Virus record (IMG/VR): IMGVR_UViG_3300037483_000699
Coordinates: 1 to 57,802 of that record
Length of the DNA: 57,802 bases
Reading direction: 5' to 3' (one strand)
From: a virus
Shown: positions 3,801 through 27,442 of the stretch, one piece after another
Layout of the letters: the number at the start of each line of letters is the position of its first letter
How positions within the stretch are numbered: position 1 is the stretch's first letter
Position numbers and translations under genes: made by a program
Notes under the pieces: model-generated
Told to the model about the DNA's origin: nothing
Database searches by the model: none
The model's input: only the letters and a program-made list of their open reading frames with translations

Positions 3801-4024
3801 GGTTCGTTCTCCTTTTCAAGCTGTTCAACACACGCCTCTTTTATATCGGTGTAGCCCTCTGGCACACGATGCCAGTTCGCTGCGGTCGCGCATTGTACCT
3901 CCCCGCACATCGAGCAGTATCTGGCGACCACCACCTCATCGCGCCCTGGTCTCCCGCTCAAGACGGTATGTGGATATGCCCACCAGTGCGTGCATTTTGA
4001 TTTCTTTTCAGTTTCGGGTGTCAT
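3797..4024 (-). CDS. Cys-rich small early protein (75 aa)
   Basis: ORF track. GAGGA lies 6 nt upstream of the ATG. Ends in ...KENEP. Confidence 0.65.
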   Translation of the reverse strand: MTPETEKKSKCTHWWAYPHTVLSGRPGRDEVVVARYCSMCGEVQCATAANWHRVPEGYTDIKEACVEQLEKENEP

Positions 4025-4034
4025 GGTTTGATCC

Positions 4035-4235
4035 TCAGCGATCTACGCCCTTCAGTTTGGACTTGAACTTCGAGCCGAGCACCCAATGAAGCACCTGGAG
4101 TTTCGTTTCGGCGGCGATTTGCTCCAAGGCTCGCGGGGCATTGACGGCGATGGTTGCCAGTCTGCCGGTCAGGACGTGCTTGTAGCTGTCCTCGATCTCT
4201 TTGATTTTCGATCTGATTTCTTGTTGTGTTTTCAT
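4035..4235 (-). CDS. Hypothetical early protein (66 aa)
   Basis: The ATG at 4235 overlaps the upstream stop (ATGA). The junction sequence is shared with 3630. Confidence 0.6.
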   Translation of the reverse strand: MKTQQEIRSKIKEIEDSYKHVLTGRLATIAVNAPRALEQIAAETKLQVLHWVLGSKFKSKLKGVDR

Positions 4236-4411
4236 ACCTTCCTGCACTTCTTGCACGTCGCCTTGCCCGTGCCGTCGTTGGTGAGCGTGATCCAGCCGCG
4301 CACCGTTTTCACACCACATCGAGCGCGGCATTGACTGTCGCTGTAGTGAATCGGCCCGAATCGCGTGCCGTCGGGTCGCTCGCGCTGGACGGTGTAGCGG
4401 GCGGGGGTCAT
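4232..4411 (-). CDS. Small zinc-ribbon-like protein (59 aa); paralog of 3627-3800
   Basis: Sequence MTPARYTVQRERPDGTRFGPIH...ATCKKCRKV. ATGA overlap with 4408-5091. Confidence 0.6.
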   Translation of the reverse strand: MTPARYTVQRERPDGTRFGPIHYSDSQCRARCGVKTVRGWITLTNDGTGKATCKKCRKV

Positions 4412-5091
4412 GGCTTGATCCTCCTGAACGTGATGGCCCACACGTAGGGATTCACGGCCCAGCCGAATCCACGCTTGGAGTTGAGTGAGTCCCAAAAAGC
4501 GGCGAAGTCGGAGCGCGCTGGAGTCAGCGTTTGCACACTCAGATGAGAAGGGAAGCCCTCAGCATTGGCATCCTCCTCCGTGATCTCCACTAATCTCTGA
4601 ACGAGCACCTTGACCACCTCCAGCGTGATGCGGGATGCCCAGCGCGGCATGTGGATGGATGGCACCCATGGGCTTGCCTCGGTTCCATCTTTTCGGTATT
4701 CAGTCCCACCATTACCAGAGTCTTTGATAATGTGCTCTGTCTCTGTGGCTTGGTAGAGACATACTTGTTTGCATTCGGGAGAATACAGGTATTCACCATC
4801 GTCCATCGCGCAGCACCACGTCTCGCGCACCCATAGTTGAGTGCCTGCGGTGCCCCAGGGGCACTTGAATACGGGAGCGCCACGCGACGCTGTGCAGAGA
4901 CTCTTGCTGTCCTTGAGCCTGAAGGACCACACGGCGGGGGTGATCTCAACAGGTTCGTATGCGCCGTGATCCCAGAACGCTCCATGTGGGTAGATAGTTC
5001 GGCTCTCAACAATTCTCCTCGTCTGCGTCTTTCTCCCGTCCTGAATGGCCGGGATTAGGGGAGCAGAAAACAGGATCGGCTTCTCGCTCAT
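4408..5091 (-). CDS. ASCH/PUA-like domain protein (227 aa)
   Basis: N-terminus KPILFSAPLIPAIQDGRKTQTRR and C-terminal ITEEDANAEGF pattern, both typical of phage ASCH-like proteins. ATGA start. Confidence 0.5.
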   Translation of the reverse strand: MSEKPILFSAPLIPAIQDGRKTQTRRIVESRTIYPHGAFWDHGAYEPVEITPAVWSFRLKDSKSLCTASRGAPVFKCPWGTAGTQLWVRETWCCAMDDGEYLYSPECKQVCLYQATETEHIIKDSGNGGTEYRKDGTEASPWVPSIHMPRWASRITLEVVKVLVQRLVEITEEDANAEGFPSHLSVQTLTPARSDFAAFWDSLNSKRGFGWAVNPYVWAITFRRIKP

Positions 5092-5411
5092 TCCTCCTCC
5101 CACAGGTTGAGGGTGCGGATGAGTGATTCGCAGCGTTGAAGGGCGGTGGCCACCATTGCAGGGTAGGCAAAGCGTAAGCCGGGCGTGCAAACCTCCTCTA
5201 AAATCAATCCATGTGCATTCTTTTGAGAATTGGTGAGCTTCATTTCCAACTCATGCACCGCGTTCAGGTCGGAAGGAAAGTCGGGCAAGTCTTTGCCAAC
5301 CCCACCCGGACTGATTCCGGTTTTGGCGTAGTCATCCATCGTAGGATCGTTGCTTATAGAAGTCCACCCCGCCCACTCCGCGAGGACAACCCGCATTCGT
5401 TCGGGTGTCAT
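5088..5411 (-). CDS. Phage ABA-sandwich-like domain protein, tandem paralog 1
   Basis: MTPERMRVVLAEWAGW ... LPDFPSDLNAVHELEMKL. Homologous to 5417-5752. Confidence 0.55.
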   Translation of the reverse strand: MTPERMRVVLAEWAGWTSISNDPTMDDYAKTGISPGGVGKDLPDFPSDLNAVHELEMKLTNSQKNAHGLILEEVCTPGLRFAYPAMVATALQRCESLIRTLNLWEEE

Positions 5412-5416
5412 ACGTC

Positions 5417-5752
5417 CTACCACAGGTTGAGGGTGCGGAGAAGGGCTTCGCACCACTCGATTCGCGTTGAGGTGACGATTCGCTCAGGGAACCAGACGCT
5501 ACTTCGATGTCTGGTCACATTGTTAATCTCGCCCAGAAAGCAGCACCGTCGAACCCGATCCAGCTTGTCGACCAACTCGTGAATGGCGTCCCACGAGTTG
5601 GGGTAGTCGGGGAGTGGCCGTGATGTTTTATCGCACCCAGCCGGAATCTGTGGGCGAAATCCAGCCGGTTGTTTGGGATTGCCATTCCAACATCCTATTG
5701 ATGTCCACCCATCCCACTCCGCGAGGACAATCCGCATTCGTTCAGGGGTCAT
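5417..5752 (-). CDS. Phage ABA-sandwich-like domain protein, tandem paralog 2
   Basis: MTPERMRIVLAEWDGW ... LPDYPNSWDAIHELVDKL ... LLRTLNLW. Confidence 0.55.
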   Translation of the reverse strand: MTPERMRIVLAEWDGWTSIGCWNGNPKQPAGFRPQIPAGCDKTSRPLPDYPNSWDAIHELVDKLDRVRRCCFLGEINNVTRHRSSVWFPERIVTSTRIEWCEALLRTLNLW

Positions 5753-5946
5753 GGTTCGTTATCCTTTAACGTGCGCAGCAGTTGCTCCATTTTGATGTTG
5801 TGGAAGATGAGCGCTGACCGCAGACCTTGGTGGAAATTCATTCCGTGGGTGTCTTTCCGTTCCTCACACCACTTTATCCAGCGGTCGCAGCTTTCGAGTA
5901 CTTGCGCGTAATCTTGGCGATACAGGGTTTCAAATTCAGGGGTCAT
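5749..5946 (-). CDS. Hypothetical early protein (65 aa)
   Basis: ATGA overlap start at 5946. Ends in ...KDNEP. Confidence 0.6.
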   Translation of the reverse strand: MTPEFETLYRQDYAQVLESCDRWIKWCEERKDTHGMNFHQGLRSALIFHNIKMEQLLRTLKDNEP

Positions 5947-6251
5947 GGCTCGTTCTCCTTCTCGCTGTGAGCACGGCGTAACGCGCGTTCCCAAGTCAGG
6001 CACTCGCCCAATATCAGGTCCCGCGCTTCGTCAATCTCAACCGCTCTGTCCTCACTTCGCGTGCCGCGAGACATGCTATGCACCAGCTCGGCAGCGTGTC
6101 GCAGCGCCTCCGCTTGAATGTCCACAATGTCCCGCGCAAGGAGGAACGTCTCGCGCCCGTTCTTGCATCGGTCGCAGATGCACGCCGGGCTCTGGTCGCA
6201 TCCCGTTCGGTCGTTGGCAATATCGCGTATCCACTCGGTTGGTGTTTTCAT
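5943..6251 (-). CDS. Hypothetical early protein (102 aa, Cys-containing)
   Basis: ATGA overlap start at 6251. Ends in ...KENEP. Confidence 0.6.
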   Translation of the reverse strand: MKTPTEWIRDIANDRTGCDQSPACICDRCKNGRETFLLARDIVDIQAEALRHAAELVHSMSRGTRSEDRAVEIDEARDLILGECLTWERALRRAHSEKENEP

Positions 6252-6751
6252 TCCTCGTTCTCCTTCCACTCAGCCCTGATTGGCTTGCCGCACCCAGGGC
6301 AGTGGCGATAATGCTGGGCCTCGGGCTGGTCATCGGTGAGGAAGCAGTAGCCCTCGCCGCAGCCTGTTTGATAGTGGCACGAGTCGTCGCACCACCTCCA
6401 TACGCACGGCTCAGGGTTGACCAACCGCTCGATCACGGGGATGAGCGCGTCGGCCTCGCGGGCGAGGTCGGTCAGGCGCTCCCGGCTGAATACCTCGTGT
6501 CCTCCGACGACCATGTAACCGGACGACGAGTAGCGTTGTGAGGACTCAGCCCGCAACCGCTCCAGGAGCCGGCGCAGGGCGGCGAGGTCGTTGGGGGTTG
6601 GTGCGGAATGTTTCTCAAGCGACGTGATGTAGGCTCGCACCTTTGCGTTTACATCATCCGCAACGGATTGCTCAGTTGCGATGTAGAGACAGCCAAGAGC
6701 TTGGTAGCACTCGGCCTTCAGCGCGGCGAGGTCGCTGGGGGTGGGGGTCAT
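6248..6751 (-). CDS. Hypothetical early protein (167 aa) with a C-terminal Cys cluster
   Basis: Start 6751 (TAA-CC-ATG). Internal duplicated PTP(S/N)DLAAL segments. C-terminus has CPGCG. Confidence 0.6.
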   Translation of the reverse strand: MTPTPSDLAALKAECYQALGCLYIATEQSVADDVNAKVRAYITSLEKHSAPTPNDLAALRRLLERLRAESSQRYSSSGYMVVGGHEVFSRERLTDLAREADALIPVIERLVNPEPCVWRWCDDSCHYQTGCGEGYCFLTDDQPEAQHYRHCPGCGKPIRAEWKENEE

Positions 6752-6753
6752 GG

Positions 6754-6975
6754 TTATAGTTTGGGGTGGATTCCCTTTTTCCATTCAGTGTTAAAAGCAG
6801 GGTCCTTGTATGGGTAGCAGCCGAACACTCCGCGATAGATGACGCCCGCTGCAATGGATTCTACCAACCCCCCATGATAGCCGAGTTCGACGCAAATCCG
6901 CCGAATCAATAACGCCACATCTTGGTTCTCCAGTTCAGGCGTGCGGCGCATCGCGGCCTTGTCGGGGGTGGTCAT
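6754..6975 (-). CDS. Hypothetical early protein (73 aa)
   Basis: ORF track, ATGA overlap start. Confidence 0.6.
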   Translation of the reverse strand: MTTPDKAAMRRTPELENQDVALLIRRICVELGYHGGLVESIAAGVIYRGVFGCYPYKDPAFNTEWKKGIHPKL

Positions 6976-7559
6976 GGTTTCCTCCTCTTGCTTCCGTAGC
7001 GGCGGCTCAGTGTTCGTTGGTAGTCCTTAGCCGCCGCGTTGCCTGTCTTGCAGCCGATCTTATGTCCCGGCGGCATAGAGCGACACTCAGGGCACCGTGG
7101 CGACTTCCCGTAGCGGCGGCGGGCCTCGGCGCGGCATCTCTTCAGCCACCATTCCGGCGCGGTTGAACCGCCCAACCACATGGTCTGTCTGAACCACCTC
7201 GCACCCGCCTCGAATGCGGCAGCCATCGCGAGGGGCGACTTGCCCCACCGTTTCCCGGCTGCGAATCCAGCCTCGAATGTGCGGGCATCTTTCGCGGTTC
7301 CAGCTTGCGCCGGCTCAACTAGCCCGCTCCAGCGAATAAGCCAGTAGGCGAAGGCGTAGATGCCGGGCACGTATCGCTTATCTCCAATTCGCTTCGGGAG
7401 CGTGGCCTTGTGCGTGGCCCACTCGGACATGATTCTGTCGAGGCAATCAGCGTAGCTCGGGCTCATGCAGGCCACCGCAATGCGGGTTCCTCGAATGCGC
7501 CTGACTCTGGTGCCGGGTCCCATGTCGAATGCGCGGGCCGCTCGTTGTTTTGGGGTCAT
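6972..7559 (-). CDS. Hypothetical early protein (195 aa, basic C-terminus with CPEC)
   Basis: The ATG at 7559 overlaps the upstream stop. Internal start of ORF 6972-7694. Confidence 0.6.
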   Translation of the reverse strand: MTPKQRAARAFDMGPGTRVRRIRGTRIAVACMSPSYADCLDRIMSEWATHKATLPKRIGDKRYVPGIYAFAYWLIRWSGLVEPAQAGTAKDARTFEAGFAAGKRWGKSPLAMAAAFEAGARWFRQTMWLGGSTAPEWWLKRCRAEARRRYGKSPRCPECRSMPPGHKIGCKTGNAAAKDYQRTLSRRYGSKRRKP

Positions 7560-7741
7560 GGTTCCTCCCTCATCCACTCGTCGATCATGGCTAGGATGCG
7601 CTGCCAGTTTGCATCCGCCCTCTTGCGACGCCACAGTGGAGGGCGCAACGTGCCATCTGTGTCGATGTCCCGCCCGTGGTTCCAGATCGTCCACACGATC
7701 TTCTCAGCGCGGCGTAGGTGCTTGCGTTCGGTGGAGGTCAT
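7556..7741 (-). CDS. Hypothetical early protein (61 aa)
   Basis: ORF track. Junction reads TGA-C-ATG. Confidence 0.55.
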   Translation of the reverse strand: MTSTERKHLRRAEKIVWTIWNHGRDIDTDGTLRPPLWRRKRADANWQRILAMIDEWMREEP

Positions 7742-9988: not shown

Positions 9989-10166
9989 AGAACTCGAAGC
10001 CCTAGAGCGCGACGCGTGGGCGGCATTCAATGCGGCTGATGCCGTGGCAAAACCTTTGCGCGATGTATGGATTGCGGCCATGCAAGCCGTCCAGCGGAAG
10101 CGCCTCCGCGATGAACTCCTCACCGAACTCAAAGCCACCCACCACGGAGAAAGACTACCGGAATGA
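9972..10166 (+). CDS. Hypothetical protein (64 aa)
   Basis: ORF track. CACCACCACC-ATGAAC start context. Confidence 0.55.
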   Translation: MNPTLEELEALERDAWAAFNAADAVAKPLRDVWIAAMQAVQRKRLRDELLTELKATHHGERLPE

Positions 10167-11473
10167 GCACCACTGACACACCCGAACCCAAACCTGAATC
10201 CAACTTGCCGGCGCTCCGCACTGAAGCTGGTGCGCTTGGCCCGGCACTTCCGCCCGAAGAAATCAACGCGCCTATCACCGCCGCCCAGGCCAAGGTGGAC
10301 GCCATCGCCCAAGTCACGATGTCTGCCTACGCACGCGCGGCCACCCTCCAGTTGGGGGCCGATGAATCCGCCGCTCTCCAAGAACCATTCCCGGACGAAG
10401 CGTTTCAGCCGGGCGCGGCCGGAAAGGAGAACCTAATTTACGTCGAGCACGCCTTCCTTCGGGATCGGCTCAACAAAGTGCTGGGCATCGGTCAGTGGGC
10501 TATCATCCCGCGCAACCGCTGGGCCGAACCGTTCAAGTTCTACAGCAAGTTCGACAAGTGCCAGAAGGAAGGCACTCGGATTTACGTTGAGGCCATGCTC
10601 ATGGTGCGCGGTGCATTCGTGGCTGAGGCTGTCGGCTCGATGGACTACTACCCGAACGACGCCACCAACTATGGCGACGCTGTTGAGGGTGCCAAGACGG
10701 CGGCACTTCGGCGGACTTGCAAGGAGTTCGGTGTGGGCCTCCAGGCATGGAGCAAGGACTGGTGCGAAGGCTGGTGGCAACGACGGCGCCAAGGTGCCCG
10801 TGGGCAACCTCCAGCGCAGGCAGCCCGGCCAGCGCCCACCCAGGCCACGCCAGCGCCTCGCCCAGCACCAGCGTGGGCACCGCCGACGCCCGAGACACCC
10901 GAGCGGAAGCTGGCCCGCTGGGTGGCGCTCATGCGCGAGGCGGCGACGAACCGAGACGAGTACGCCGAGGAAGTCCTCCGTGACCACGACATCCTCATGC
11001 CTAACGAGACGCTTGCGGACTACCCGCTGAGGAAGTTGCCGGCGAGCCGCGGCATCGCCGCGGGCCTTCTGGACGAGATTCGCGCGAAGTCGGGCGCGGG
11101 TGAACCGCCGCCGCCGGCGAAGCCCGCCGCCAAGCCCGCTCCGGCGCCGGCACCAGCCGCCACCGAGAAGGCTGAGGAACCTTGGCGGGCCTACCCGATG
11201 CCGTTCGGGAAGAACGCTGGCACGCCGCTGGGGAAGCTCGCCAAGCCCTATCTGTTCGGCCTGTGGGCCAACTACGTCGTTGAGACGGAATGGAAGGGAA
11301 AGCCGCGTAGCGAGGCGCAGATCACGAAGGACCTTGGATTTCGTACGATGCTGGACGACGCTGGCCGCCACTACGAGTTCACCAAGCCGGAGGACAGCCA
11401 GCCGGCGCAGCCGAGCGAGCCTGAGCCCGGGCCTGGACCGGAGCCGGATGACGCGGATGATTGCCCATTCTGA
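10163..11473 (+). CDS. Rad52/Rad22-like single-strand annealing protein fused to a C-terminal PFGK (DUF3820-like) domain
   Basis: GDAVEGAKTAALRRTCKEFGVGLQAW resembles the Rad52-family core. A Pro/Ala linker follows, then YPMPFGKNAGTPLGKLAKPYLFGLW. Confidence 0.5.
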   Translation: MSTTDTPEPKPESNLPALRTEAGALGPALPPEEINAPITAAQAKVDAIAQVTMSAYARAATLQLGADESAALQEPFPDEAFQPGAAGKENLIYVEHAFLRDRLNKVLGIGQWAIIPRNRWAEPFKFYSKFDKCQKEGTRIYVEAMLMVRGAFVAEAVGSMDYYPNDATNYGDAVEGAKTAALRRTCKEFGVGLQAWSKDWCEGWWQRRRQGARGQPPAQAARPAPTQATPAPRPAPAWAPPTPETPERKLARWVALMREAATNRDEYAEEVLRDHDILMPNETLADYPLRKLPASRGIAAGLLDEIRAKSGAGEPPPPAKPAAKPAPAPAPAATEKAEEPWRAYPMPFGKNAGTPLGKLAKPYLFGLWANYVVETEWKGKPRSEAQITKDLGFRTMLDDAGRHYEFTKPEDSQPAQPSEPEPGPGPEPDDADDCPF

Positions 11474-11475
11474 CC

Positions 11476-11796
11476 ATGAGCATTCCCTTCACTCAATTCC
11501 TGATGCCCAACGGGCGACAGACTCCGGTGGAGATTGACCGGCCACCTGAGATTGAGGCCCTGGCCAAGCGCCTCCTGGACGCGGGATGCCACTTCGAGAT
11601 TGAAATGCTGACGACGGGTGAAGTCAGCATGGAGGTCGTCTGGTCGCAACAGGAAGAACCGGTTGCGTCGGCCCTGTGTCCCAACGGTCCCGAGGTGCCC
11701 GTCAGCGTTGACCAGATGATTCGAGAGGCGGTGAAGAATCTGGAACCTGATGCCGACATGGGCCGCATGGAACACGACGACCGCGGAGACAACTGA
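11476..11796 (+). CDS. Hypothetical protein (106 aa)
   Basis: First ATG of ORF 11461-11796, 2 nt after the upstream stop. Confidence 0.55.
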   Translation: MSIPFTQFLMPNGRQTPVEIDRPPEIEALAKRLLDAGCHFEIEMLTTGEVSMEVVWSQQEEPVASALCPNGPEVPVSVDQMIREAVKNLEPDADMGRMEHDDRGDN

Positions 11797-11823
11797 CCAC
11801 CAAACCACCACCACACCACCACC

Positions 11824-12576
11824 ATGAACCTAGTCCGATACCAATGGAAAGACGGAGAACTCCCGGGCATTCAATATGACCAGGAGGAGATTCAGAAACG
11901 CGATGCCCTCGTGTTGAGGGCCGAGCAAATCATGGCGGTTACGACCGCTGACGAACAGGCGATGGCCGTTGCCGTCGGACAGGACCTCCGCAACTGGGTG
12001 AAGGACATCGAGGCCGCGCGCGTCGAGGTTAAGGCGCCCTTCCGGGAGCGGGCGGAGCTGGTGGACAGTCTCGCCAAGGGAGCCGTCGCTCCGCTCAAAG
12101 CCGAACTGGACCGGCTGTCGAGGCTCGTCTCGTGCTTCCAAGCGCAGGAGGCAGAGCGCGTCAGGTTGGCTGAGGATGCCCGGCAGAAGGAGATTGCCCG
12201 CCTCGAAGCCGAGCGGAAGAAGGCTGAAGACGACGCCCGCGTGATGCAGGCGGCGATGGTGAGTGACAAGGACCTGGAGGAAGCTATCGCGGCGGAGGCA
12301 GCGGCGAAGAAGGCCCAGGAGGACGCCTACAACCGGATTGCGGCACCGTTGCCGGAGGCACAGAAGGCCACCGGCGCGGCCACACGCAAAGAGATGTGCT
12401 ACGAGGTGTTGGATGTCCATGCGCTCTACAGGGCACGGCCGGAACTCGTGAGGTTGGAGGCCAACGCCGCGGCGATTCGTGCAACGGTGGTGGTGGGCAT
12501 GGTGGTGCCTGGATTGCGCATCTGGGAGGAGACGAAGACGGTAATCAGCACGCGGCGGCCGGCGTGGGTGAGGTAG
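11824..12576 (+). CDS. Coiled-coil protein (250 aa), recombination/replication block
   Basis: ORF track. Long E/A/R/K heptad-like central region. Confidence 0.6.
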   Translation: MNLVRYQWKDGELPGIQYDQEEIQKRDALVLRAEQIMAVTTADEQAMAVAVGQDLRNWVKDIEAARVEVKAPFRERAELVDSLAKGAVAPLKAELDRLSRLVSCFQAQEAERVRLAEDARQKEIARLEAERKKAEDDARVMQAAMVSDKDLEEAIAAEAAAKKAQEDAYNRIAAPLPEAQKATGAATRKEMCYEVLDVHALYRARPELVRLEANAAAIRATVVVGMVVPGLRIWEETKTVISTRRPAWVR

Positions 12577-14028: not shown

Positions 14029-14097
14029 TTCCCCTTGCCGCTGGCGCCCGCGGCGCGTAGGGTGAGGACGTGAGATCGTGCAAGACAATCTGCCGAC

Positions 14098-14155
14098 CTC
14101 CCGGAGCCCGAAAGGGCGCCTCGGGGTTCTACCCCCACGGTCTCACATCCGGGAG
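14098..14155 (+). promoter_or_regulatory. Structured leader (possible three-way junction) upstream of the winged-helix gene
   Basis: Outer 8-bp stem CTCCCGGA/TCCGGGAG encloses GCCC-GAAA-GGGC and GGGG-TTCTA-CCCC hairpins. Confidence 0.35.
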
Positions 14156-14178
14156 GCGGCGCTTGCTTGGAGGCACAA

Positions 14179-16023: not shown

Positions 16024-16347
16024 ATGAAGATCGTGTTGCGCGTCGAGGGTCTGGGCCATGTCCCATCCTTCAAAAACTCGAAGGTAATCGGCCAGCGCCG
16101 GCTGTTCACCAAGCCCGAGTACCGCCTTTGGATGGACCGGGTCACCCGGAGTTTCGAGTCTCAGTTGTTGTTGGCGTTTCAGACAACCGACGCCGGGACC
16201 TGGACGGCGCACTCAGCACCCTCCTTGACTGTCTGGTGGAAGCGTTTCGACGACTCCCACCAATGGGTCCCGGAGTTGAACATCGAACGGATCCAGGTCC
16301 CCAAGGGCAAGGAAGGGGCTGTAGTGATGATTGAAAGCCTCGAATGA
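16024..16347 (+). CDS. rusA: RusA-like Holliday-junction resolvase, with its conserved catalytic segment in a different reading frame
   Basis: Frame of 16024 gives VPSFKNSK...EYRLWMDRV and FDDSHQWV...KGKEGAVVMIESLE. The RRRDLDGALSTLLDCLVEA motif is encoded in the frame of ORF 15990-16334. Confidence 0.5.
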   Translation: MKIVLRVEGLGHVPSFKNSKVIGQRRLFTKPEYRLWMDRVTRSFESQLLLAFQTTDAGTWTAHSAPSLTVWWKRFDDSHQWVPELNIERIQVPKGKEGAVVMIESLE

Positions 16348-16475
16348 TGGTCACCACACCCGCCAGAGTGGCCCAGCCGGTGCGCTGGGCTTGCGCTGTG
16401 AGGCGTTTGAGGGGTGGGCCGCCCTTGGGACAGCGGGTTTTGCCTCCGACGCCTTGTAGGGCGTCCTGGAGGCCC

Positions 16476-16715
16476 CTACCGCGCCGCCCGCGGCGCGTGC
16501 TCGAACAGCTTCTCGTAAGGCAGCCCTGTGCGCTCGATGATCTGGGCGATGGTCGGGCCGTGGAGCTGGTGCGTGCCCTCCAGGAAGCGGCGCAGGCTGC
16601 GATACTCGATGCCCCAGGCCGTCGCCGCGGCGTAGATCGAGCCATGGATCCTGGCCACGAGGTCTGAAAACAGCGGCGAGGGCGTGACGGTGTAGCGTGG
16701 TTTGGGCGTCTTCAT
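16476..16715 (-). CDS. XRE-family helix-turn-helix regulator (79 aa)
   Basis: AAATAWGIEYRSLRRFLEG..HGPTIAQIIERTGLPYEKLF. Has its own promoter-like element. Confidence 0.6.
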   Translation of the reverse strand: MKTPKPRYTVTPSPLFSDLVARIHGSIYAAATAWGIEYRSLRRFLEGTHQLHGPTIAQIIERTGLPYEKLFEHAPRAAR

Positions 16716-16721
16716 GGTGGC

Positions 16722-16750
16722 AGTTTCCTCTTTTGGGTGTCGTGTGTCAA
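16722..16750 (-). promoter_or_regulatory. Candidate promoter for the XRE gene (leaderless geometry, GAAACT box)
   Basis: Minus strand reads TTGACA-17 nt-GAAACT-6 nt-ATG(16715). Confidence 0.45.
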
Positions 16751-16786
16751 TGCAGGGCTTTGGACGTATTGGCGACATTGGCGCCC

Positions 16787-16960
16787 TCACAGGTTGGCAA
16801 CCGACAACACCACGGCGGCCAGGGCCAGGAGGACGAGCGCGACGGCGCGGCCGTTCCATAGGACGCCGTCGGCGTCGGACCAGAGGTTGCCGGGCCGGCA
16901 GCGCCAGCCGATGACCCAGCCGGCGTACAGCGCGGCCAAGGCGAAAAGGGTGGTTCTCAC
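16787..16960 (-). CDS. Small two-TM membrane protein (57 aa, GTG start, not in the ORF track)
   Basis: Hand translation: VRTTLFALAALYAGWVIGW...AVALVLLALAAVVLSVANL. GTGA junction with the upstream stop. Confidence 0.4.
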   Translation of the reverse strand: MRTTLFALAALYAGWVIGWRCRPGNLWSDADGVLWNGRAVALVLLALAAVVLSVANL

Positions 16961-17220
16961 GCGGCGCCTTTCTCTTTCTGCCGTTCAACCGCCTGTTGCT
17001 GCTGGTAGCTCGTGTCGCTCCAGCGCCAGTCGCCGTCGGCCACACGCACCCACCACTTGCTCGGGTTGTCTGGGTCTTGCGCGTGCCATCCGGGACAGCG
17101 CCCGGAGTCTCCGCACACTGTGCAGTTGCCGGCTGCGTCAAACACCGCACGGATTGGGGTCAGCCCCTCGGCCGCTATTTCCCGCTTCATTTGCGCTTTG
17201 AAAGCCCGATAGGTCTTCAC
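16957..17220 (-). CDS. Hypothetical Cys-containing protein (87 aa with the GTG start; alternative ATG at 17190)
   Basis: GTGA junction with 17217-17711. Part of ORF 16957-17259. Confidence 0.5.
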   Translation of the reverse strand: MKTYRAFKAQMKREIAAEGLTPIRAVFDAAGNCTVCGDSGRCPGWHAQDPDNPSKWWVRVADGDWRWSDTSYQQQQAVERQKEKGAA

Positions 17221-17711
17221 TTCCCACCGCCTTCCAGCGCGGCGTCGGAGGCAGCGCAAGCGCCTTCCATGTCGATCCTGGGCTTGTTGTAACGATTGTT
17301 AGTCATCGCCAACCGTGCCAGCTTCAGCGCCTCGCGCAGCCGGTCCCGCTCCGCCTTTGCGTCTGAAAGCATCGTGTCGAGCTTGGGAATGAATGCGCGA
17401 GCTGCCAGCAGCTCCTCACGATCCGCCTCCCCCTCCGCCGCCTTGCGCTGGAAGAACAGCGCCGCCGTCGTCTTGCGGTCAAGCTGCTCGTGCAGATTGT
17501 CCCGCTCCGTTCGCAGCGCCGCCAGTTCGGCGGCTGGGTCTTCCATGCCCGCGCCGGCGTTCACGCAAGCGCAGATGCGGTCTGCGTCCGCGTCTCTCGT
17601 CCGCTGATAGCCCGCTTCCATGACCGCCACGAGTCGGCCATCCGCACCCCGTACGGCTCGCTGCCCATCGGGGTCTTTGCCCGTCTTCCAAGGTTCTGCT
17701 GTGTGGTTCAT
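17217..17711 (-). CDS. Hypothetical protein (164 aa)
   Basis: ORF track. Confidence 0.6.
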   Translation of the reverse strand: MNHTAEPWKTGKDPDGQRAVRGADGRLVAVMEAGYQRTRDADADRICACVNAGAGMEDPAAELAALRTERDNLHEQLDRKTTAALFFQRKAAEGEADREELLAARAFIPKLDTMLSDAKAERDRLREALKLARLAMTNNRYNKPRIDMEGACAASDAALEGGGK

Positions 17712-17714
17712 AGT

Positions 17715-18053
17715 TCAGCCTTTCCCGAGGGTTACGGTTTGCCCGCACGTTGAAACCTCGAACTGTTCGCCCCGCCGGGCGATGACCTTGGCCGCGTCCG
17801 CAGTGATAACCGCCCGAAACGCTGCCGGGCAATCGCGCTCGAATTGCACCTCCAGTTCCCGGTACGGCAGGAATGCCAAACGAGCATAGTCGCCGGCCAC
17901 GGCCCGGCCCTTGTCAGCGTAAACGATCCCGCACGGGAACACCCCGGCGAAGAGCCGATTTCGCGCCTTTTCTGCATCGGCCAGCGTTTGAGACTCCTGC
18001 GTTATGCGGGCGTAGCGGTTTCTGACTGTCTTCCAACTGGGTTGCCTTCTCAT
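17715..18053 (-). CDS. Hypothetical protein (112 aa)
   Basis: ORF track, preceded by ACAACGAAAGGAACC. Confidence 0.6.
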   Translation of the reverse strand: MRRQPSWKTVRNRYARITQESQTLADAEKARNRLFAGVFPCGIVYADKGRAVAGDYARLAFLPYRELEVQFERDCPAAFRAVITADAAKVIARRGEQFEVSTCGQTVTLGKG

Positions 18054-18068
18054 GGTTCCTTTCGTTGT

Positions 18069-18104
18069 CCGCTGATCGCGGAGAGAGCCGGCCCGTAAGC
18101 CGGC
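18069..18104 (-). promoter_or_regulatory. Intercistronic double hairpin (CCGC-GAUCA-GCGG and GCCGGC(U)-UACG-(G)GCCGGC)
   Basis: Lies between the stop at 18117 and the RBS of 18053. RNA-sense UNCG tetraloop. Confidence 0.5.
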
Positions 18105-18116
18105 CTTGCTCCGGGG

Positions 18117-18257
18117 TCAGTAGCAGACTGCAACGCCGCGAGTGTAAACGCTGTCCACGTTCTCCCCCGCCGCGACTTGCGACTTGCGCAGGATGTAGAG
18201 GTTACACCCTCGGCAATCGCCCTGTCGGTAGGCCAGCAGCCGCTTGTGCCCGGCCAT
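18117..18257 (-). CDS. Possible micro-protein (46 aa, not in the ORF track)
   Basis: Hand translation: MAGHKRLLAYRQGDCRGCNLYILRK... It fills the gap between 18288 and the hairpin. Confidence 0.35.
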   Translation of the reverse strand: MAGHKRLLAYRQGDCRGCNLYILRKSQVAAGENVDSVYTRGVAVCY

Positions 18258-18287
18258 GATCTTGCCCAGCCGCTTCAATGCGCCCGC

Positions 18288-18527
18288 TTACCGGTCTTGG
18301 ATCGGCTCGCGCCTCTCGCTCTGCGCGCTCTGCGCGCTCTGCCAGTAGGGTTTACCGGTCTCATCATCCCGGCAGATACAGCCGCGCTCGTTACCGCACT
18401 CCTGCTCACCCCAGCGCTGGAGCGTGCGCTCGATCCGCAACAGCGAATCAGTTTCCCCGTCCTCGAATCCCATTGCCCCCAGCGCCCGATACAGCGCCAG
18501 CATGTTTCGCCTTTCGCTCTTGTTCAT
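18288..18527 (-). CDS. Hypothetical protein (79 aa; alternative start at 18503)
   Basis: ORF track. Two tandem GAAAGGCGA-N-ATG start contexts. Confidence 0.55.
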   Translation of the reverse strand: MNKSERRNMLALYRALGAMGFEDGETDSLLRIERTLQRWGEQECGNERGCICRDDETGKPYWQSAQSAQSERREPIQDR

Positions 18528-18545
18528 TCTCTCGCCTTTCGTTGT

Positions 18546-18557
18546 GGCCCGTAGGCC
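18546..18557 (-). promoter_or_regulatory. Intercistronic tetraloop hairpin GGCC-UACG-GGCC
   Basis: Lies 3 nt after the TAA stop at 18561 and is followed by ACAACGAAAGGCGAGAGA-ATG. Confidence 0.5.
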
Positions 18558-18560
18558 GGT

Positions 18561-19205
18561 TTACTCACCCGCAAGTTGAGACTGTAAAGCAGGGTTGTCT
18601 TCAGCCGATAATTGCGGCACCGTCCACTTCGGCAACGACCATGCCTGACCAGAGTGGGCTGCGCTTGCCGCGTTGCGTCCTTCGTTTGTTATCGCGCCGG
18701 CAGAATTCAGAAGCCCCATTGCGATAAGCTCCGCCCTGGCTTGGTTCCATTCCGGCGCCGGAAGCCCGATTTCATCCTGTGCCATTTGCTGGCGGTTCTT
18801 CCCGTTGTAGGACGACTTACGCTCTCGGGTGAACACCAACACCGCGACTTGCGCCTTGGTGAAGTTCCGCGCCGGAGGCAGCATCTTTTGCAGGTTCTCC
18901 GCGTTTACGCTCACTGTCAAACCAAGGTCTTTCCCACAGAAGATTGTGTGTCGAACAATCGCCCAATTTGCCGGCAGGGTGCTGGCCTGAAAGACTTCCG
19001 GCATGAACGGTGTTCCATTCTCCGGTACCGGGAAGGACTGGCCGCTTTGCAGGTTCACCGCAACGTAGTAGGCGCGACTTCCACCAGACCAGTAAGAATC
19101 GCACCGCATAGGGCCGGCGAACGGCTCAACCTTGAATGTCCTACCGGAGTACGAAGGGAATGCCACTAGAGCAATCCGCTTTAGTTCGCTGTCGTTTGAG
19201 TACAT
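18561..19205 (-). CDS. Hypothetical protein (214 aa)
   Basis: ORF track. Confidence 0.65.
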   Translation of the reverse strand: MYSNDSELKRIALVAFPSYSGRTFKVEPFAGPMRCDSYWSGGSRAYYVAVNLQSGQSFPVPENGTPFMPEVFQASTLPANWAIVRHTIFCGKDLGLTVSVNAENLQKMLPPARNFTKAQVAVLVFTRERKSSYNGKNRQQMAQDEIGLPAPEWNQARAELIAMGLLNSAGAITNEGRNAASAAHSGQAWSLPKWTVPQLSAEDNPALQSQLAGE

Positions 19206-19428
19206 GTTTGCCTTTCTGGCCTCGCGGCCGGGTTATTGCGTGAACGAAGAAACCGGATCGCACGCCATCAATCCAATCTGTGTCTGATTGGGCGTCCTGA
19301 TCCGGGTTAGGATACCTCTCTAGTAGCTGGTCATCCGTCATTGCATCCAGCCTGATCAGGTGGTCCGTCTCGGTTGGGGTGTGGATGCAGGGTTGAACCA
19401 TTCCGCACGGGCAGATTTGAGTGCTCAT
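19141..19428 (-). CDS. Hypothetical Cys-containing protein (95 aa) that reads through the junction cassette and overlaps the next gene by 64 nt
   Basis: ORF track. The cassette TAA at 19233 is out of frame here. Confidence 0.5.
   Translation of the reverse strand: MSTQICPCGMVQPCIHTPTETDHLIRLDAMTDDQLLERYPNPDQDAQSDTDWIDGVRSGFFVHAITRPRGQKGKHVLKRQRTKADCSSGIPFVLR
19203..19235 (-). repeat. 33-bp perfect direct repeat (junction cassette), copy 1
   Basis: catgtttgcctttctggcctcgcggccgggtta is identical to 19426-19458. Contains the GGCC-GCGA-GGCC hairpin at 19218-19229. Confidence 0.9.
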
Positions 19429-19458
19429 GTTTGCCTTTCTGGCCTCGCGGCCGGGTTA
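19426..19458 (-). repeat. 33-bp perfect direct repeat (junction cassette), copy 2
   Basis: Identical to 19203-19235. Contains the GGCC-GCGA-GGCC hairpin at 19441-19452. Confidence 0.9.
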
Positions 19459-19680
19459 CTTCACACTGAACACCCCGCACAGCAACCACGGTGCGCTGTA
19501 GCGCTGGGAGCCGTCCCGCGCCCGCTCAACCTCGCCCGTCTCGTCCAACAGGATCAGCCGGCACGCGTTGGGGTCACCGTCCGGAAGCGCCAGGCTCTTC
19601 CGATCCGCCGCAGGGATTGTGTCGTCCGCAAGCCTCAGCGTTTCTTCCAGACTCGCTGTTCGTGTTCTAATTGCTCTCAT
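19456..19680 (-). CDS. Hypothetical protein (74 aa)
   Basis: ATG 19680 within ORF 19456-19872, preceded by the hairpin-RBS cassette. Confidence 0.55.
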   Translation of the reverse strand: MRAIRTRTASLEETLRLADDTIPAADRKSLALPDGDPNACRLILLDETGEVERARDGSQRYSAPWLLCGVFSVK

Positions 19681-19696
19681 TCTCGCCTTTCGTTGT

Positions 19697-19708
19697 GCGC
19701 TCTCGCGC
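19697..19708 (-). promoter_or_regulatory. Intercistronic tetraloop hairpin GCGC-GAGA-GCGC
   Basis: Lies between the TAA stop at 19712 and ACAACGAAAGGCGAGA-ATG(19680). Confidence 0.5.
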
Positions 19709-19711
19709 GGT

Positions 19712-19915
19712 TTACTGCTCCGAAATCGACCTGGCTTCCCGCTCCACCTCGTCAAAAGCCCGCGCCAGCTCGCCGGCCAACCCGCGCCGGCAGCCATGCC
19801 AGGCTTCGGCTGCGCGCACGAGCCAGACCGGACTGGTGACCCAGTCCAGTTGGTAGCCCATCGCTGCGTCAAGCTCGGCCACGAGCGCGTTGAGGGTTTC
19901 GATTGCTGGTGTCAT
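19712..19915 (-). CDS. Hypothetical protein (67 aa)
   Basis: ATG 19915 within ORF 19712-20056. AAGGAA lies upstream. Confidence 0.55.
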   Translation of the reverse strand: MTPAIETLNALVAELDAAMGYQLDWVTSPVWLVRAAEAWHGCRRGLAGELARAFDEVEREARSISEQ

Positions 19916-19923
19916 GTTTCCTT

Positions 19924-20364
19924 TCACGCAGGCACCGCATTGGACTCTTCCCGTTGGGATTTGCACTCGGCCGCATAAGCTTCGTACAGGCGGCAGAGGT
20001 CGCAGCATTCCTCGACTCCGATGGAGATTCGGAGCATATCGTTTGCCTCGACCCAAACGCCATCAGGATCGTTGGCGAGGGTTTGCAGCAAGGTCAAAAA
20101 CATGTACCGCTCACTGAAGCTAACGATTGCGTGAAACTCCCGCTTGAACGCGGTGTAGGCCGGCCGTTCAGACTGCCACCGCTCAGAAAACGCCTTGCGC
20201 TCTGCCGCGTGGGCCACGAGATCCACGCCCGGCTTGACCTTGCGCCAGAGCTTCCAGCCGTTACCCTGGTTGCGCAGAATCTTGCCGTCTGAGAAATACG
20301 CTATCTTGTCCGCAAGCCGCTCGATCCTAAGAAACTCTTCGCCGTGTTTGCTGATAGTTGCCAT
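19924..20364 (-). CDS. Hypothetical protein (146 aa)
   Basis: ATG 20364 within ORF 19924-20412. Confidence 0.6.
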   Translation of the reverse strand: MATISKHGEEFLRIERLADKIAYFSDGKILRNQGNGWKLWRKVKPGVDLVAHAAERKAFSERWQSERPAYTAFKREFHAIVSFSERYMFLTLLQTLANDPDGVWVEANDMLRISIGVEECCDLCRLYEAYAAECKSQREESNAVPA

Positions 20365-20381
20365 GTTTCGCCTTTCTTGGT

Positions 20382-20393
20382 GCGCTCTCGCGC
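20382..20393 (-). promoter_or_regulatory. Intercistronic tetraloop hairpin GCGC-GAGA-GCGC
   Basis: Lies between the TGA stop at 20396 and ACCAAGAAAGGCGAAAC-ATG(20364). Confidence 0.5.
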
Positions 20394-20395
20394 GT

Positions 20396-20602
20396 TCACT
20401 GACACTCCGCACAGTACTTGACCCTCATCGGCACGAGTTCATTGCAGCCCGCGCATTCGTGCAGCGCGTTCGGACAGCCGGACTCGTGACAGGGCGTACC
20501 TTGTATCACCATTGCCTCACACTGAGAACACGCTACCCGCACGCTGCCCGTTCGTTGTTGGGACTGGTCAAAGCCCAACGCTTTCAGTTGGTTCAGGTTC
20601 AT
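20396..20602 (-). CDS. Zinc-ribbon-like protein (68 aa)
   Basis: ATG 20602 within ORF 20396-20710. Motifs CSQC...C...C..C..CAGC...CAEC. Confidence 0.6.
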   Translation of the reverse strand: MNLNQLKALGFDQSQQRTGSVRVACSQCEAMVIQGTPCHESGCPNALHECAGCNELVPMRVKYCAECQ

Positions 20603-20631
20603 ATTCGCCTTTCGCGTGGTTTGGTTGACTG

Positions 20632-20820
20632 TCACCCGTTCATGCCGTAGTCGTAATCTCCGCCGCCTCCGCGCTTCGCCCAACGGTCCCAACCAGCTCG
20701 CCGCCGCCACTCCACGGCTACGCTGCGCGTGCCATCGGTCGCCTGCTGCGTCTGCTGCGTCTGCTGCTGCGCGGTCATCCGCTCTTGGTGCGCTTTCGCG
20801 CGCTTTTGTGATTTAGTCAT
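20632..20820 (-). CDS. First gene of the second leftward operon; Gln-rich small protein (62 aa; alternative start at 20778)
   Basis: ATG 20820 within ORF 20632-20871. A GCGC-GAAA-GCGC hairpin at 20790-20801 precedes the alternative ATG. Confidence 0.5.
   Translation of the reverse strand: MTKSQKRAKAHQERMTAQQQTQQTQQATDGTRSVAVEWRRRAGWDRWAKRGGGGDYDYGMNG
20790..20801 (-). promoter_or_regulatory. Tetraloop hairpin GCGC-GAAA-GCGC near the 5' end of the operon
   Basis: Same cassette design as 19697 and 20382, followed by ACCAAGAGCGG-ATG(20778). Confidence 0.4.
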
Positions 20821-20827
20821 GCCCCCA

Positions 20828-20857
20828 CCCCTAGCCTCCGCCGTGCCAACCATCCAA
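20828..20857 (-). promoter_or_regulatory. Weak candidate promoter for the second leftward operon
   Basis: Minus strand reads TTGGAT-18 nt-TAGGGG-7 nt-ATG(20820). The -10 region resembles that of 22182. Confidence 0.3.
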
Positions 20858-21135
20858 ACCCTAACCACCAACGGTTTACGCGACTACACCAACTTGAGAC
20901 AAAAGCCCGTTTTCGTGTCCATTTGCCTCGTTCCTAGACATTTGGACATTACGCTAGGCATTGCATCCGCAAGGTATTCGGTAAAGCATACACTCTCACC
21001 TGCCGCTTTCATTGGACGTTATCGTTAATCCCGCCAAACCGTAAGCTCTACCTACACCACAAGAGGGTCGAACCGTACCCGCTGTATCCCGCGCCCGGTG
21101 GGCTTTCCGCGTACTCCACGCCACCCGCACGCCTT

Positions 21136-21150
21136 GTGCAAATTTTGCAC
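21136..21150. promoter_or_regulatory. Perfect 15-bp palindrome GTGCAAATTTTGCAC in the divergent control region (operator candidate)
   Basis: Read directly. Its right arm TTGCAC is repeated at 21169 as a -35-like box. Confidence 0.45.
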
Positions 21151-21168
21151 TCCGCCCCCGCCTATCAC

Positions 21169-21196
21169 TTGCACCCACCACTTGTCCCGCTTACGT
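21169..21196 (+). promoter_or_regulatory. Weak candidate promoter for the rightward operon
   Basis: TTGCAC-16 nt-TTACGT-6 nt-ATG(21203). Confidence 0.3.
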
Positions 21197-21202
21197 TCCG
21201 CC

Positions 21203-21484
21203 ATGCCGAACTACGGGGAAGCGTATGACGAATCGTATGCACAGCAACAGGTTCTGCTGGTTGACGCCAAGAACCTCACCTTGACACCAAGTCAGCGTGC
21301 TACCGCCTCACGTGTCTGGGTGTTGCACGAAGCACTTCGTCGAGACATCCGCGCAGGCCCGAAGCTGAACGGCCGGCGGCCGAAGCCCGAGCGCAAGGCA
21401 CGTCCGGCGCCTGTGGTGCCCGTGCTCCCGCCCGAGCCTGCTGCTGCGCCTGGGCCAGAGCCTGTGCAAGGCCCTTCGGTGTAG
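21203..21484 (+). CDS. Hypothetical protein (93 aa, Pro/Ala-rich C-terminus)
   Basis: First ATG of ORF 21098-21484. Confidence 0.5.
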   Translation: MPNYGEAYDESYAQQQVLLVDAKNLTLTPSQRATASRVWVLHEALRRDIRAGPKLNGRRPKPERKARPAPVVPVLPPEPAAAPGPEPVQGPSV

Positions 21485-21606
21485 CTGCTGCTCTCACCTG
21501 CGGGCGAAGCCCTATTGCTCACGAACGGCACGCGCTTCAGGAATGCGGGGGATTCTAAGGGGGTTCAGCGGTGAAGTGTCGAGCTTAAATGTGGCCCTAT
21601 TGCGAG

Positions 21607-21649
21607 TAGGGCCATTCGGCCCTATCATGACTAGGGCCATTCGGCCCTA
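21607..21649. repeat. Two copies of the 18-bp palindrome TAGGGCC-ATTC-GGCCCTA at 25-bp spacing, flanked by GGCCCTATTGC half-sites
   Basis: Copies at 21607-21624 and 21632-21649. Further (G)GCCCTATTGC sites at 21509 and 21593. Confidence 0.85.
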
Positions 21650-22115
21650 TTGCTCTTCGCTCCGCCGGGCCCGCAGGCTGCGCACTCGCCCATCTGCGTC
21701 ATGCCCGGAGGGCAAGCGCACCGCGCTAGTACTGCCCTGTCCTGATGCTCTGCTCCTGGCCCCACGCACACCCACCCACAGACGGGGGCCGGCACCGAAC
21801 GCGGTAAGCGGGAACGCGAAGTACAGCGCACCGCGCGTAGCCGGCCCGACGCTGAGCCTGTACGCTACCACCACGAAGCCGTCAGGAGTCTCCTTGGGAG
21901 CCAGACCGTCCCGGCGGGCGGCCCCCGGGAGGGGCTGGACGGGTGAGCGTGCGGTAGTAGTAGCTCCCGCGTGTACTCGAGGAGACTTCCCAAGAATTCC
22001 TTGGGGTTGGTGCAGGGAACCTCTTTTTTGGGTGGGGTAGGGCAGGGTGTTCCACGTGGAGATGGGTAGCGAGGGGAGGTAAAATGAAAGGTCGTACTGA
22101 GTATGAGTACTGAGG

Positions 22116-22142
22116 GGCTTACCGCGGCTTACATTGGCTTAC
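22116..22142 (+). repeat. Three GGCTTAC iterons at an exact 10-bp period (a fourth GCTTAC at 22164)
   Basis: ggcttaccgc|ggcttacatt|ggcttac, read directly upstream of the promoter of 22194. Confidence 0.8.
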
Positions 22143-22158
22143 GTCAGCAAAATAATGC

Positions 22159-22187
22159 TTGACGCTTACTTTGTGGGGGTGTAGAGG
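22159..22187 (+). promoter_or_regulatory. Candidate promoter (leaderless geometry) of the winged-helix gene
   Basis: TTGACG-17 nt-TAGAGG-6 nt-ATG(22194). The GAGGTG here could alternatively act as a Shine-Dalgarno site. Confidence 0.5.
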
Positions 22188-22193
22188 TGGGGC

Positions 22194-22727
22194 ATGTATG
22201 GAAGGATATTCGAGTCGATGTTCGAGGGGAGTTTGGTGGGGAGCAGGCCGATAGTGTGGGCGGTGTGGGGGTATGTGATAGCGAAGCAGCGGAGGGACCG
22301 GGTGGTGGGGAGTCAAGTGAGGTTGAACCCGACGTTGCTGGCGACGATTTTCGGGACGACGGAGAAAGAGGTGGCAGGGGCGGTGGAGTTTCTGTGCAGT
22401 CCGGACGAGCACAGCCACAGCAAGAAGGAAGGCGGTAGGCGGTTGGTGAGGGTGGGGGAGTTCGAGTATCAGGTGGTGAATGGGGCGAAGTACATGGCGG
22501 TTCGGGATGAGGAGGACAGGCGGGCGCAGAATCGGGAGTCGCAGCGGACGTTCAGGGCGAAGCAGTCTCGGCCCGGCCGGGATGGCCGGCACCCCAAGCG
22601 TACGAAGGCGGAGCAGGCGGAGATTCGGGAGCAGGCGAATGGGATGGCGGCGGGGGCGGACACAGATGAGTTCATTCCGGCGGTAATGGAGGGCAAGGCG
22701 GCGGCGCCGGGGGAGGGCGGGGGATGA
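22194..22727 (+). CDS. Winged-helix DNA-binding protein (177 aa), paralog of 14179-15114; possible regulator or small-terminase-like role
   Basis: LCSPDEHSHSKKEGGRRLV motif shared with 14179. Basic region RRAQNRESQRTFRAKQ. Confidence 0.5.
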   Translation: MYGRIFESMFEGSLVGSRPIVWAVWGYVIAKQRRDRVVGSQVRLNPTLLATIFGTTEKEVAGAVEFLCSPDEHSHSKKEGGRRLVRVGEFEYQVVNGAKYMAVRDEEDRRAQNRESQRTFRAKQSRPGRDGRHPKRTKAEQAEIREQANGMAAGADTDEFIPAVMEGKAAAPGEGGG

Positions 22728-27376: not shown

Positions 27377-27392
27377 ACCATGAAACCAGAGT

Positions 27393-27416
27393 CGCCCCGA
27401 GTAATCACGCGGGGCG
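27393..27416 (+). terminator. Hairpin after the tail-fibre gene (7-bp GC stem, no U-tract)
   Basis: CGCCCCG-10 nt-CGGGGCG, 17 nt after the stop codon. Confidence 0.3.
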
Positions 27417-27442
27417 CGGATTGAAACTGAACCACCACCACC

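Follow-up and report, generated by a model that had tools for sequence, protein, structure and literature searches.

The window analysed here is the whole of IMG/VR record IMGVR_UViG_3300037483_000699, the complete genome of an uncultured soil phage (57,802 bp, 59.9% G+C, with a 127-bp terminal repeat). We examined a leftward operon of small open reading frames (ORFs) on its minus strand, in which short G-C hairpins capped by GNRA or UNCG tetraloops were observed upstream of an A-rich Shine-Dalgarno (SD) box at several gene junctions. All of the operon ORFs displayed a coding-type composition, with G+C at the first codon position (GC1) higher than at the second (GC2) and high at the third (GC3), and their products returned no informative family match in Pfam or PHROG. 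The eight hairpins listed for this operon in a preliminary description of the DNA were all found on the minus strand, both by reading the strand and through an exhaustive scan, and are named J0 to J9b below (Table 1). Six gaps between same-strand ORFs carried a hairpin and were 27-63 nt each, with J0 (at 20790) the exception to this gap location. The recurring arrangement would constitute a portable unit, consisting of a stop codon, 2-3 nt, a C(GNRA)G or C(UNCG)G hairpin, the A-rich SD box and a start codon.

Table 1. Positions of the operon, its hairpins, cassettes and SD boxes, and a plus-strand hairpin, in window coordinates.
Feature	Position	Strand	Remarks
Leftward operon	16476..20820	-	~14 small ORFs; cassettes in promoter-proximal part 18053-20801
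J0 hairpin GCGC-GAAA-GCGC	20790-20801	-	off-junction; 13 nt upstream of in-frame ATG 20776
J2 hairpin GCGC-GAGA-GCGC	20382-20393	-	2 nt past stop 20396-20398; 17 nt before ATG 20364
J4 hairpin GCGC-GAGA-GCGC	19697-19708	-	3 nt past stop 19712-19714; 16 nt before ATG 19680
J5 cassette TAA-CCC-GGCC GCGA GGCC-AGAAAGGCAAAC-ATG	19426-19458	-	33 nt; hairpin 19441-19452; TAA ends ORF 19456-19680 in frame
J6 cassette, GGCC-GCGA-GGCC	19203-19235	-	33-nt identical copy of J5; hairpin 19218-19229
J7 hairpin GGCC-UACG-GGCC	18546-18557	-	3 nt past stop 18561-18563; 18 nt before ATG 18527
J9a hairpin (G)GCCGGCU-UACG-GGCCGGC(U)	18086-18105	-	six G-C pairs flanked by 2 G.U wobbles
J9b pentaloop hairpin CCGC-GAUCA-GCGG	18069-18081	-	position relative to ACAACGAAAGG as for the tetraloop hairpins
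Shared A-rich SD box ACAACGAAAGGCGAGA(GA)	18528-18545 (example)	-	further copy 19681-19696
SD box copy ACCAAGAAAGGCGAAAC	20365-20381	-	
SD box copies AGAAAGGCAAAC	19429-19440 and 19206-19217	-	
SD box copy ACAACGAAAGGAACC	18054-18068	-	
GCGCG-GCAA-CGCGC hairpin	57026-57039	+	8 nt upstream of ATG 57048; ~280-nt leader

The hairpins were less widespread than the preliminary description had stated, which placed one at almost every junction between 20820 and 16476. We found one at 6 of the 13 junctions, all within 18053-20400. The hairpin-free junctions were short gaps, overlaps or unstructured gaps (20603-20631, 19916-19923, 18258-18287 and 17712-17714, plus overlapping or downstream ones). J0 had been counted as a stop-hairpin junction, yet no stop precedes it, and it lies inside ORF 20632-20820, or within the leader if the start is ATG 20776. 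A match of 19 out of 20 nt with the J2 cassette (GCGCGARAGCGCACCAAGA) nevertheless places J0 in the same family. Read on the plus strand (20787-20804), the J0 hairpin followed by TTTTGTGATTT scored as intrinsic-terminator-like, antisense to the operon. The J6 cassette was confirmed in part: the hairpin is present, but the TAA at 19233-19235 is out of frame for ORF 19141-19428 and cannot serve as its stop. The flanks of J7 (TAAACC ... ACAACGAAAGGCGAGA) were the same as those of J4, and J9a could be extended to a longer bulged stem through flanking CCGGAG/CUCUCCG.

To compare these numbers with chance, only a 4-bp stem made up entirely of G-C pairs and capped by a GNRA or UNCG loop was counted as a strict hairpin. 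Six were observed at 18040-20830 on the minus strand, while 2000 dinucleotide-preserving shuffles of this region averaged 0.175 with a maximum of 2, and none of the 2000 reached six, so the hairpins stand far above chance. The shuffle control had been set beforehand in the preliminary description, and at no point did it match the observed count. Over the whole minus strand we counted 8 strict hairpins compared to 2.5 +/- 1.5 expected, and other phage loci totalling 182 kb yielded a background of 11 with both strands summed.

We also examined the loops and stems themselves. Eight all-GC hairpins with a 4-bp stem and a 4-nt loop were present in the region. In the six that lie in cassettes the sense-strand loop was GNRA or UNCG without exception, and the remaining two, in coding sequence outside the cassettes, had loops of neither class (ATGA and TACA). 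Each of the seven tetraloops belonged to a stable class when read on the sense strand (7/7) and none when read on the antisense strand (0/7), and the sole hairpin with a pentaloop was J9b, both as initially described. Four distinct tetraloops were observed (GAAA, GAGA, GCGA and UACG), from two classes that together make up 12 of the 256 possible tetraloops (~5%). The closing pair was C-G in the six 4-bp hairpins and U.G in the 18086 stem. All four stem sequences were perfectly complementary. Comparison of J4 with J7, which have identical flanks, revealed a double compensatory stem change from GCGC to GGCC, in which the two inner pairs flip from C-G/G-C to G-C/C-G, along with a switch of loop class from GAGA to UACG. 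Across the seven copies, 89% of cells paired, compared to 14-43% when the 3' partner was slid by 1-3 columns. Because stable loops occur on the sense strand only, fall into few classes and are accompanied by compensatory stem changes, the hairpins have very probably been selected at the RNA level, for RNA stability and not as a protein or DNA site. This agrees with the RNA-level elements suggested in the preliminary description. The three-dimensional shapes of GNRA and UNCG loops are unrelated, and their interchange points to stability itself, rather than the recognition surface of one factor, as the selected property; what is selected would be fast, autonomous and stable folding.

Folding predictions were made for the junctions in isolation and in context. 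In the stop-to-start gaps the hairpin was the sole predicted structure, as at J2, where the gap folded as the hairpin alone. The whole J9 gap formed an extended fold of -25.1 kcal/mol, with J9b competing with the extended J9a fold. When 60 nt of sequence was included on either side, the stem probability was 0.91 for J2, 0.98 for J7, within 0.91-0.98 for J6 and 0.58 for J0.

A portion of the cassettes were duplicates of one another. The identity between J5 and J6 spanned exactly 33 nt, starting at TAA and stopping at ATG, and the sequences on either side were unrelated. The two copies bracket a single ORF (19236-19428). J2, J4 and J7 were tied together by repeat families D13 and D18. The TAA of J6 lies in the +1 frame of ORF 19141-19428, which indicates copying of the cassette as one piece rather than evolution in place. 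This ORF (minus strand) runs through the J6 hairpin and shares 65 nt with the gene that follows (ATG 19205); we read it through the hairpin because codon-position composition supports its frame up to the cassette (GC1 0.66, GC2 0.41). A frameshift mutation, an assembly indel and programmed frameshifting were not distinguishable as the origin of this frame.

Relatives of the phage were found via its 802-aa structural protein and comprised five whole genomes plus ten pattern-scanned ones (n=15). The hairpin array was absent from all 15. The hairpin-flanked operon genes had no homologue in the five closest complete relatives, which share structural genes only (30-66% identity). Homologues of the 214-aa, 146-aa and 112-aa operon proteins, located in IMG/VR and JGI metagenomes, sit in unrelated phages of 33-68% G+C with no cassette near them, and a search with the 74-aa operon protein found no relatives. 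Exact and degenerate cassette patterns gave chance matches only within IMG/VR; a 17-mer search there returned two coding matches and one unrelated ribosome-binding site (RBS), and the arms of the hairpin-plus-box pattern matches were non-complementary. Beyond what was first described, the hairpin units are therefore duplicated cassettes joining lineage-specific genes without known function.

Two observations were made during these searches. An unrelated 93.8-kb viral contig of 43% G+C (L011, reverse strand, ~1830-1880) contained TAA-CC-ACAACGAAAGGCGAGAAC-ATG, followed 3 nt on by a second AAAGGCGAGAAC-ATG. Other genes of this contig use AAAGGYGA sites, and the shared 17-mer was within chance expectation, but the site shows AAAGGCGA in use as a ribosome-binding motif elsewhere. 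In metagenomes, the 146-aa protein had its nearest homologues at 55% and 47% identity. Each of these sat behind a big nested hairpin (L051:300-379 and L052:1275-1354) of -43 and -34 kcal/mol, respectively, over 80 nt. These hairpins ended ~16 nt ahead of the start codon and represent a different kind of structure, far larger than that of the cassettes.

In sequence features, the elements come nearest to the hyperstable tetraloop hairpins between cistrons of phage T4, a between-gene punctuation known since 1988, and the sequence features that define those hairpins are present here. Intercistronic C(UUCG)G and GNRA hairpins of this type were reportedly described in T4 mRNA by Tuerk et al. in 1988. 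Both sets are short hairpins within untranslated gaps of polycistronic phage mRNA, with UNCG or GNRA loops, a C-G closing pair (here 6 out of 7), sense-strand specificity and no terminator U-tract. The hairpins observed here differ from those of T4 in having minimal 4-bp all-G-C stems, in being fused to a conserved SD box with constant spacing, in being repeated as a cassette, and in their restriction to a single operon whose genes lack a known function, the phage itself having no relation to T4. Their T4-type stability is a nearest-neighbour prediction, with an isolated hairpin dG of -5.9 to -13.7 kcal/mol (-5.9 to -7.2 for the 4-bp stems, including J0 at -5.9, and -13.7 for J9a). It was in T4 mRNA that the UUCG tetraloop was discovered (PMC4371310).

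Three further systems share part of this arrangement. PeSL (promoter-early stem-loop) cassettes are conserved intergenic modules proposed to act as short-homology recombination linkers that shuffle genes of unknown function (PMC2839356), a picture that the annealing protein and exonuclease encoded by the present phage fit. Like the cassettes here, the PeSLs of T4-type phages extend from stop to start, contain a GC stem-loop and end in an SD and start codon. PeSLs flank small unknown-function genes in a variable, hyperplastic region (PMC2839356, PMC4122927); here, identical 33-nt copies flank a single gene, and the operon genes are missing from the relatives. PeSLs are ~100 bp, however, and contain a strong sigma-70 promoter and terminating stem-loops, whereas the present cassettes are 27-33 nt, gaps which leave no room for a promoter, and no sigma-70-type promoter was predicted on the minus strand at 16.4-20.8 kb. 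PeSL-like termination was not observed either: stems were 4 bp, no U-tract stood behind any copy, and the terminator scan was blank on the minus strand of the operon, which upholds the earlier statement that these are not intrinsic terminators. The Start-Associated Sequences (SAS) and extended SAS (ESAS) of Cluster K mycobacteriophages consist of a box over the RBS just upstream of a subset of starts, and about half of the SAS boxes follow an inverted repeat with a 4-13-nt spacer, a translation role being suspected (PMC3203893). A conserved asymmetric RBS box with an upstream inverted repeat is common to both, but SAS has a defined 13-bp sequence (GGGATAGGAGCCC), its inverted repeats are imperfect and 17 bp long, and its conservation is cluster-wide, while here the box is ACAACGAAAGGCGAGA, the stems are 4 bp and perfect, the tetraloops are canonical and the array is missing from the relatives. 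The REP-type intercistronic stem-loops of malEFG are said to stabilise upstream mRNA (Newbury et al. 1987), and in the Rhodobacter puf operon an intercistronic stem-loop stabilises the upstream mRNA segment. These likewise lie between cistrons, in a setting of differential stability within one transcript, yet their stems are much longer and stronger, and the corresponding role here is predicted.

We propose that the elements are T4-type hyperstable intercistronic hairpins fused to an SD box, which would serve as punctuation for mRNA stability and processing and also as short-homology linkers, a reading to which we give about even weight. The hairpins would act as passive punctuation of a polycistronic early mRNA. 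Cleavage would fall in the adjoining single-stranded A/C-rich RNA, so that the hairpins define segment ends and slow nucleases, and this slowing may result in cistron-specific mRNA lifetimes. The 27-33-nt cassettes might in addition offer short homologies to the annealing protein (Rad52/Mgm101-like) and the exonuclease that the phage itself encodes. The cassettes would then be places where small genes could enter, leave or be exchanged, with the translation signals of their neighbours undisturbed. This linker role is probably secondary to the role in mRNA stability and processing, and we infer gene shuffling from the repeat structure alone.

Several points weigh against this proposal. A role in mRNA stability or processing is plausible, with the short 4-bp stems its main weakness: such stems are poor barriers to 3' exonucleases, and characterised stabilisers are usually far stronger. 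In the equilibrium folds with 60 nt on either side, which take into account neither ribosomes on the upstream ORF nor folding during transcription, the J5 stem had a probability of 0.31 and that of J4 was ~0, both partly out-competed and J4 by pairing with upstream coding RNA. Since the cassette was found in no related genome, covariation is confined to paralogous copies of one genome and may represent as few as 3-4 founding events. As to gene shuffling, no recombinant genome was found.

The preliminary description had also suggested that the hairpins are insulators keeping each RBS unpaired, such that a hairpin locks the GC-rich junction and the SD box and start remain single-stranded in any coding context. 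The SD box that adjoins the hairpin is indeed A-rich and mostly unpaired (unpaired probability 0.33-0.74), and the junction gaps fold as a hairpin only. We compared the mean unpaired probability from -15 to +3 of the native junctions with that of 60 composition-matched hairpin shuffles and of junctions from which the hairpin had been cleanly deleted. When the upstream context was 40 nt, all seven native junctions were equalled or exceeded in openness by 53-90% of their shuffles, and with 5 nt the native sequence was more open than the shuffles at J2 only, with no gain at the other six. Partition-function folding thus gave no gain in accessibility, native SD and start sites being no more accessible than with shuffled or deleted hairpins (J2 with 5-nt context excepted), and we consider the insulator role unlikely.

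A low probability was also assigned to the cassette being a dedicated 'gene connector' for Rad52-like capture and exchange of promoterless genes, integron-like without promoter or integrase, or else a set of cleavage marks for an operon-encoded endoribonuclease. If the former were true, a captured gene would gain a context-independent, nuclease-resistant translation start from the hyperstable hairpin.

There is a small chance that the hairpins are binding or cleavage sites of a phage-encoded factor, either a lambda-N-like arginine-rich antiterminator acting on boxB-like GNRA hairpins or an endoribonuclease producing single-gene mRNAs. The first ORF of the operon does encode a small (62-aa), basic, Arg/Trp-rich protein with KRAKAHQER and WRRRAGWDRWAKR motifs; one hairpin copy stands at the very start of the operon, beside or inside this gene, and in five hairpins a short GC stem carries a GNRA loop. 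A nut-type system, however, needs one site per operon, a boxB hairpin whose pentaloop is GNRA-like, plus a boxA, whereas here there are multiple copies, the tetraloops belong to two classes unrelated to each other, and the alignment revealed no conserved boxA-like partner. GNRA and UNCG loops occupy equivalent cassette positions despite their unrelated shapes, and the operon proteins lack any Pfam or PHROG family. UUCG-type loops have moreover been described as protein-free, binding no protein (PMC4371310).

Similarly improbable, in our view, are hitch-hiking repeats, that is, cassettes spread by duplication or recombination in which the hairpin has no RNA function. Perfect 33-nt duplicates, near-identical flanks and relatives without cassettes would all be expected under such spreading. 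Drift of a neutral repeat would not, however, preserve paired stems together with stable loops, and here four different stems are all perfectly paired and each of the four different loops is, in the sense orientation alone, one of the hyperstable ~5% of tetraloop sequences.

DNA-level sites are very unlikely, whether paired restriction, methylation or protein sites or extruded DNA hairpins like N4-type promoters. Three of the four stem types are self-complementary (GCGC, GGCC and GCCGGC), a palindromic look that is uninformative because half of all all-GC 4-bp stems with a G base and a C closing are palindromes, and the CCGC/GCGG stem is non-palindromic. The genome did not avoid GCGC (470 copies, observed-to-expected ratio 0.92) or GGCC (442 copies, ratio 0.85), the stem sequence is variable where a protein site should be conserved, and the strand asymmetry of the loops favours RNA, the extra stability of UNCG being dependent on the RNA 2'-OH.

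Scarcely credible are RNase III sites, which need ~20 bp where the stems have only 4, ribozyme halves, for which nothing relevant appeared in Rfam even at E <= 10 over 16300-22300 and no CUGAUGA-type hammerhead core in or near the operon leader, and attenuators or terminators, with no U-tract and A-rich sequence (ACAACGAAAGG) downstream. The terminator reading draws on PeSL stem-loops, which do end transcription (PMC2839356).

In these cassettes the two classic classes of hyperstable tetraloop replace one another within a single repeated element, a clean example from nature. Standardised junction cassettes around small genes of unknown function are now seen in a very divergent soil phage lineage, beyond T4-type phages and Cluster K, although the hairpins open no new class of mechanism. 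The 12-nt hairpin plus 16-nt SD box represents a compact natural intercistronic part, which can be tested in synthetic operons.

Nearly all of the phage proteins were without a match in PHROGs, Pfam or PDB sequences, the large proteins having no PDB sequence match by which a phage RNA polymerase might be recognised. Among the few exceptions were a Mgm101/Rad52-like annealing protein (10163-11473, plus strand; PF06420, E 2.4e-14), an exonuclease (11824-12576, plus strand; phrog_10477) and a sugar C-methyltransferase. The annealing-protein gene and the exonuclease gene two genes on form a phage recombination module (10163-12576, plus strand). A distant blastn search of GenBank phages with the operon gave no nucleotide match, a prophage search of bacterial genomes gave none, no Rfam covariance model reached its gathering score genome-wide, and a tRNA scan of the phage genome returned zero.

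The plus-strand hairpin at 57026 had been described as the same device ahead of the capsid gene. The hairpin was present, but an adjacent stop and SD box were not, the preceding stop being ~258 nt away, and the likeness to the operon device is only partial. The gene at 57048, which wraps across the terminal repeat to 749, is the most conserved late gene and a putative capsid gene, 56-66% conserved in all five relatives; its capsid identity was unconfirmed by hidden Markov models, with no PHROG match.

The other leftward early operon (3.3-9.3 kb) had its own, unrelated junction repeat, AAGGAGAACGAACC-ATGACC, in four copies (3789-7573, minus strand). Repeats of 45-75 nt with 73-88% identity were observed at its gene ends (3735/4346, 5088/5408 and 5355/5696), and its genes showed ATGA overlaps and no hairpins. 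In the hairpin-bearing operon, ORF 18288-18527 (79 aa) and ORF 18117-18257/18278 (both minus strand) are in frame with only TAA 18288-18290 between them, the second without an evident SD. This segment (18117-18527) may encode one 136-aa protein through a read-through or recoded stop, contain a recent nonsense mutation, or represent two genes.

SD-type sites were used by both leftward early operons. Many plus-strand genes (at 11797-11823, 27377-27442 and 2340-2383, among other starts) instead had CA-rich unstructured leaders without a Shine-Dalgarno, e.g. ACCACCACCACC-ATG, which suggests two translation-initiation modes within one phage. The 150-nt gap before gene 14179 (14029-14178, plus strand) had a predicted fold of -75 kcal/mol and contained a GCCC-GAAA-GGGC tetraloop hairpin at 14106-14117.

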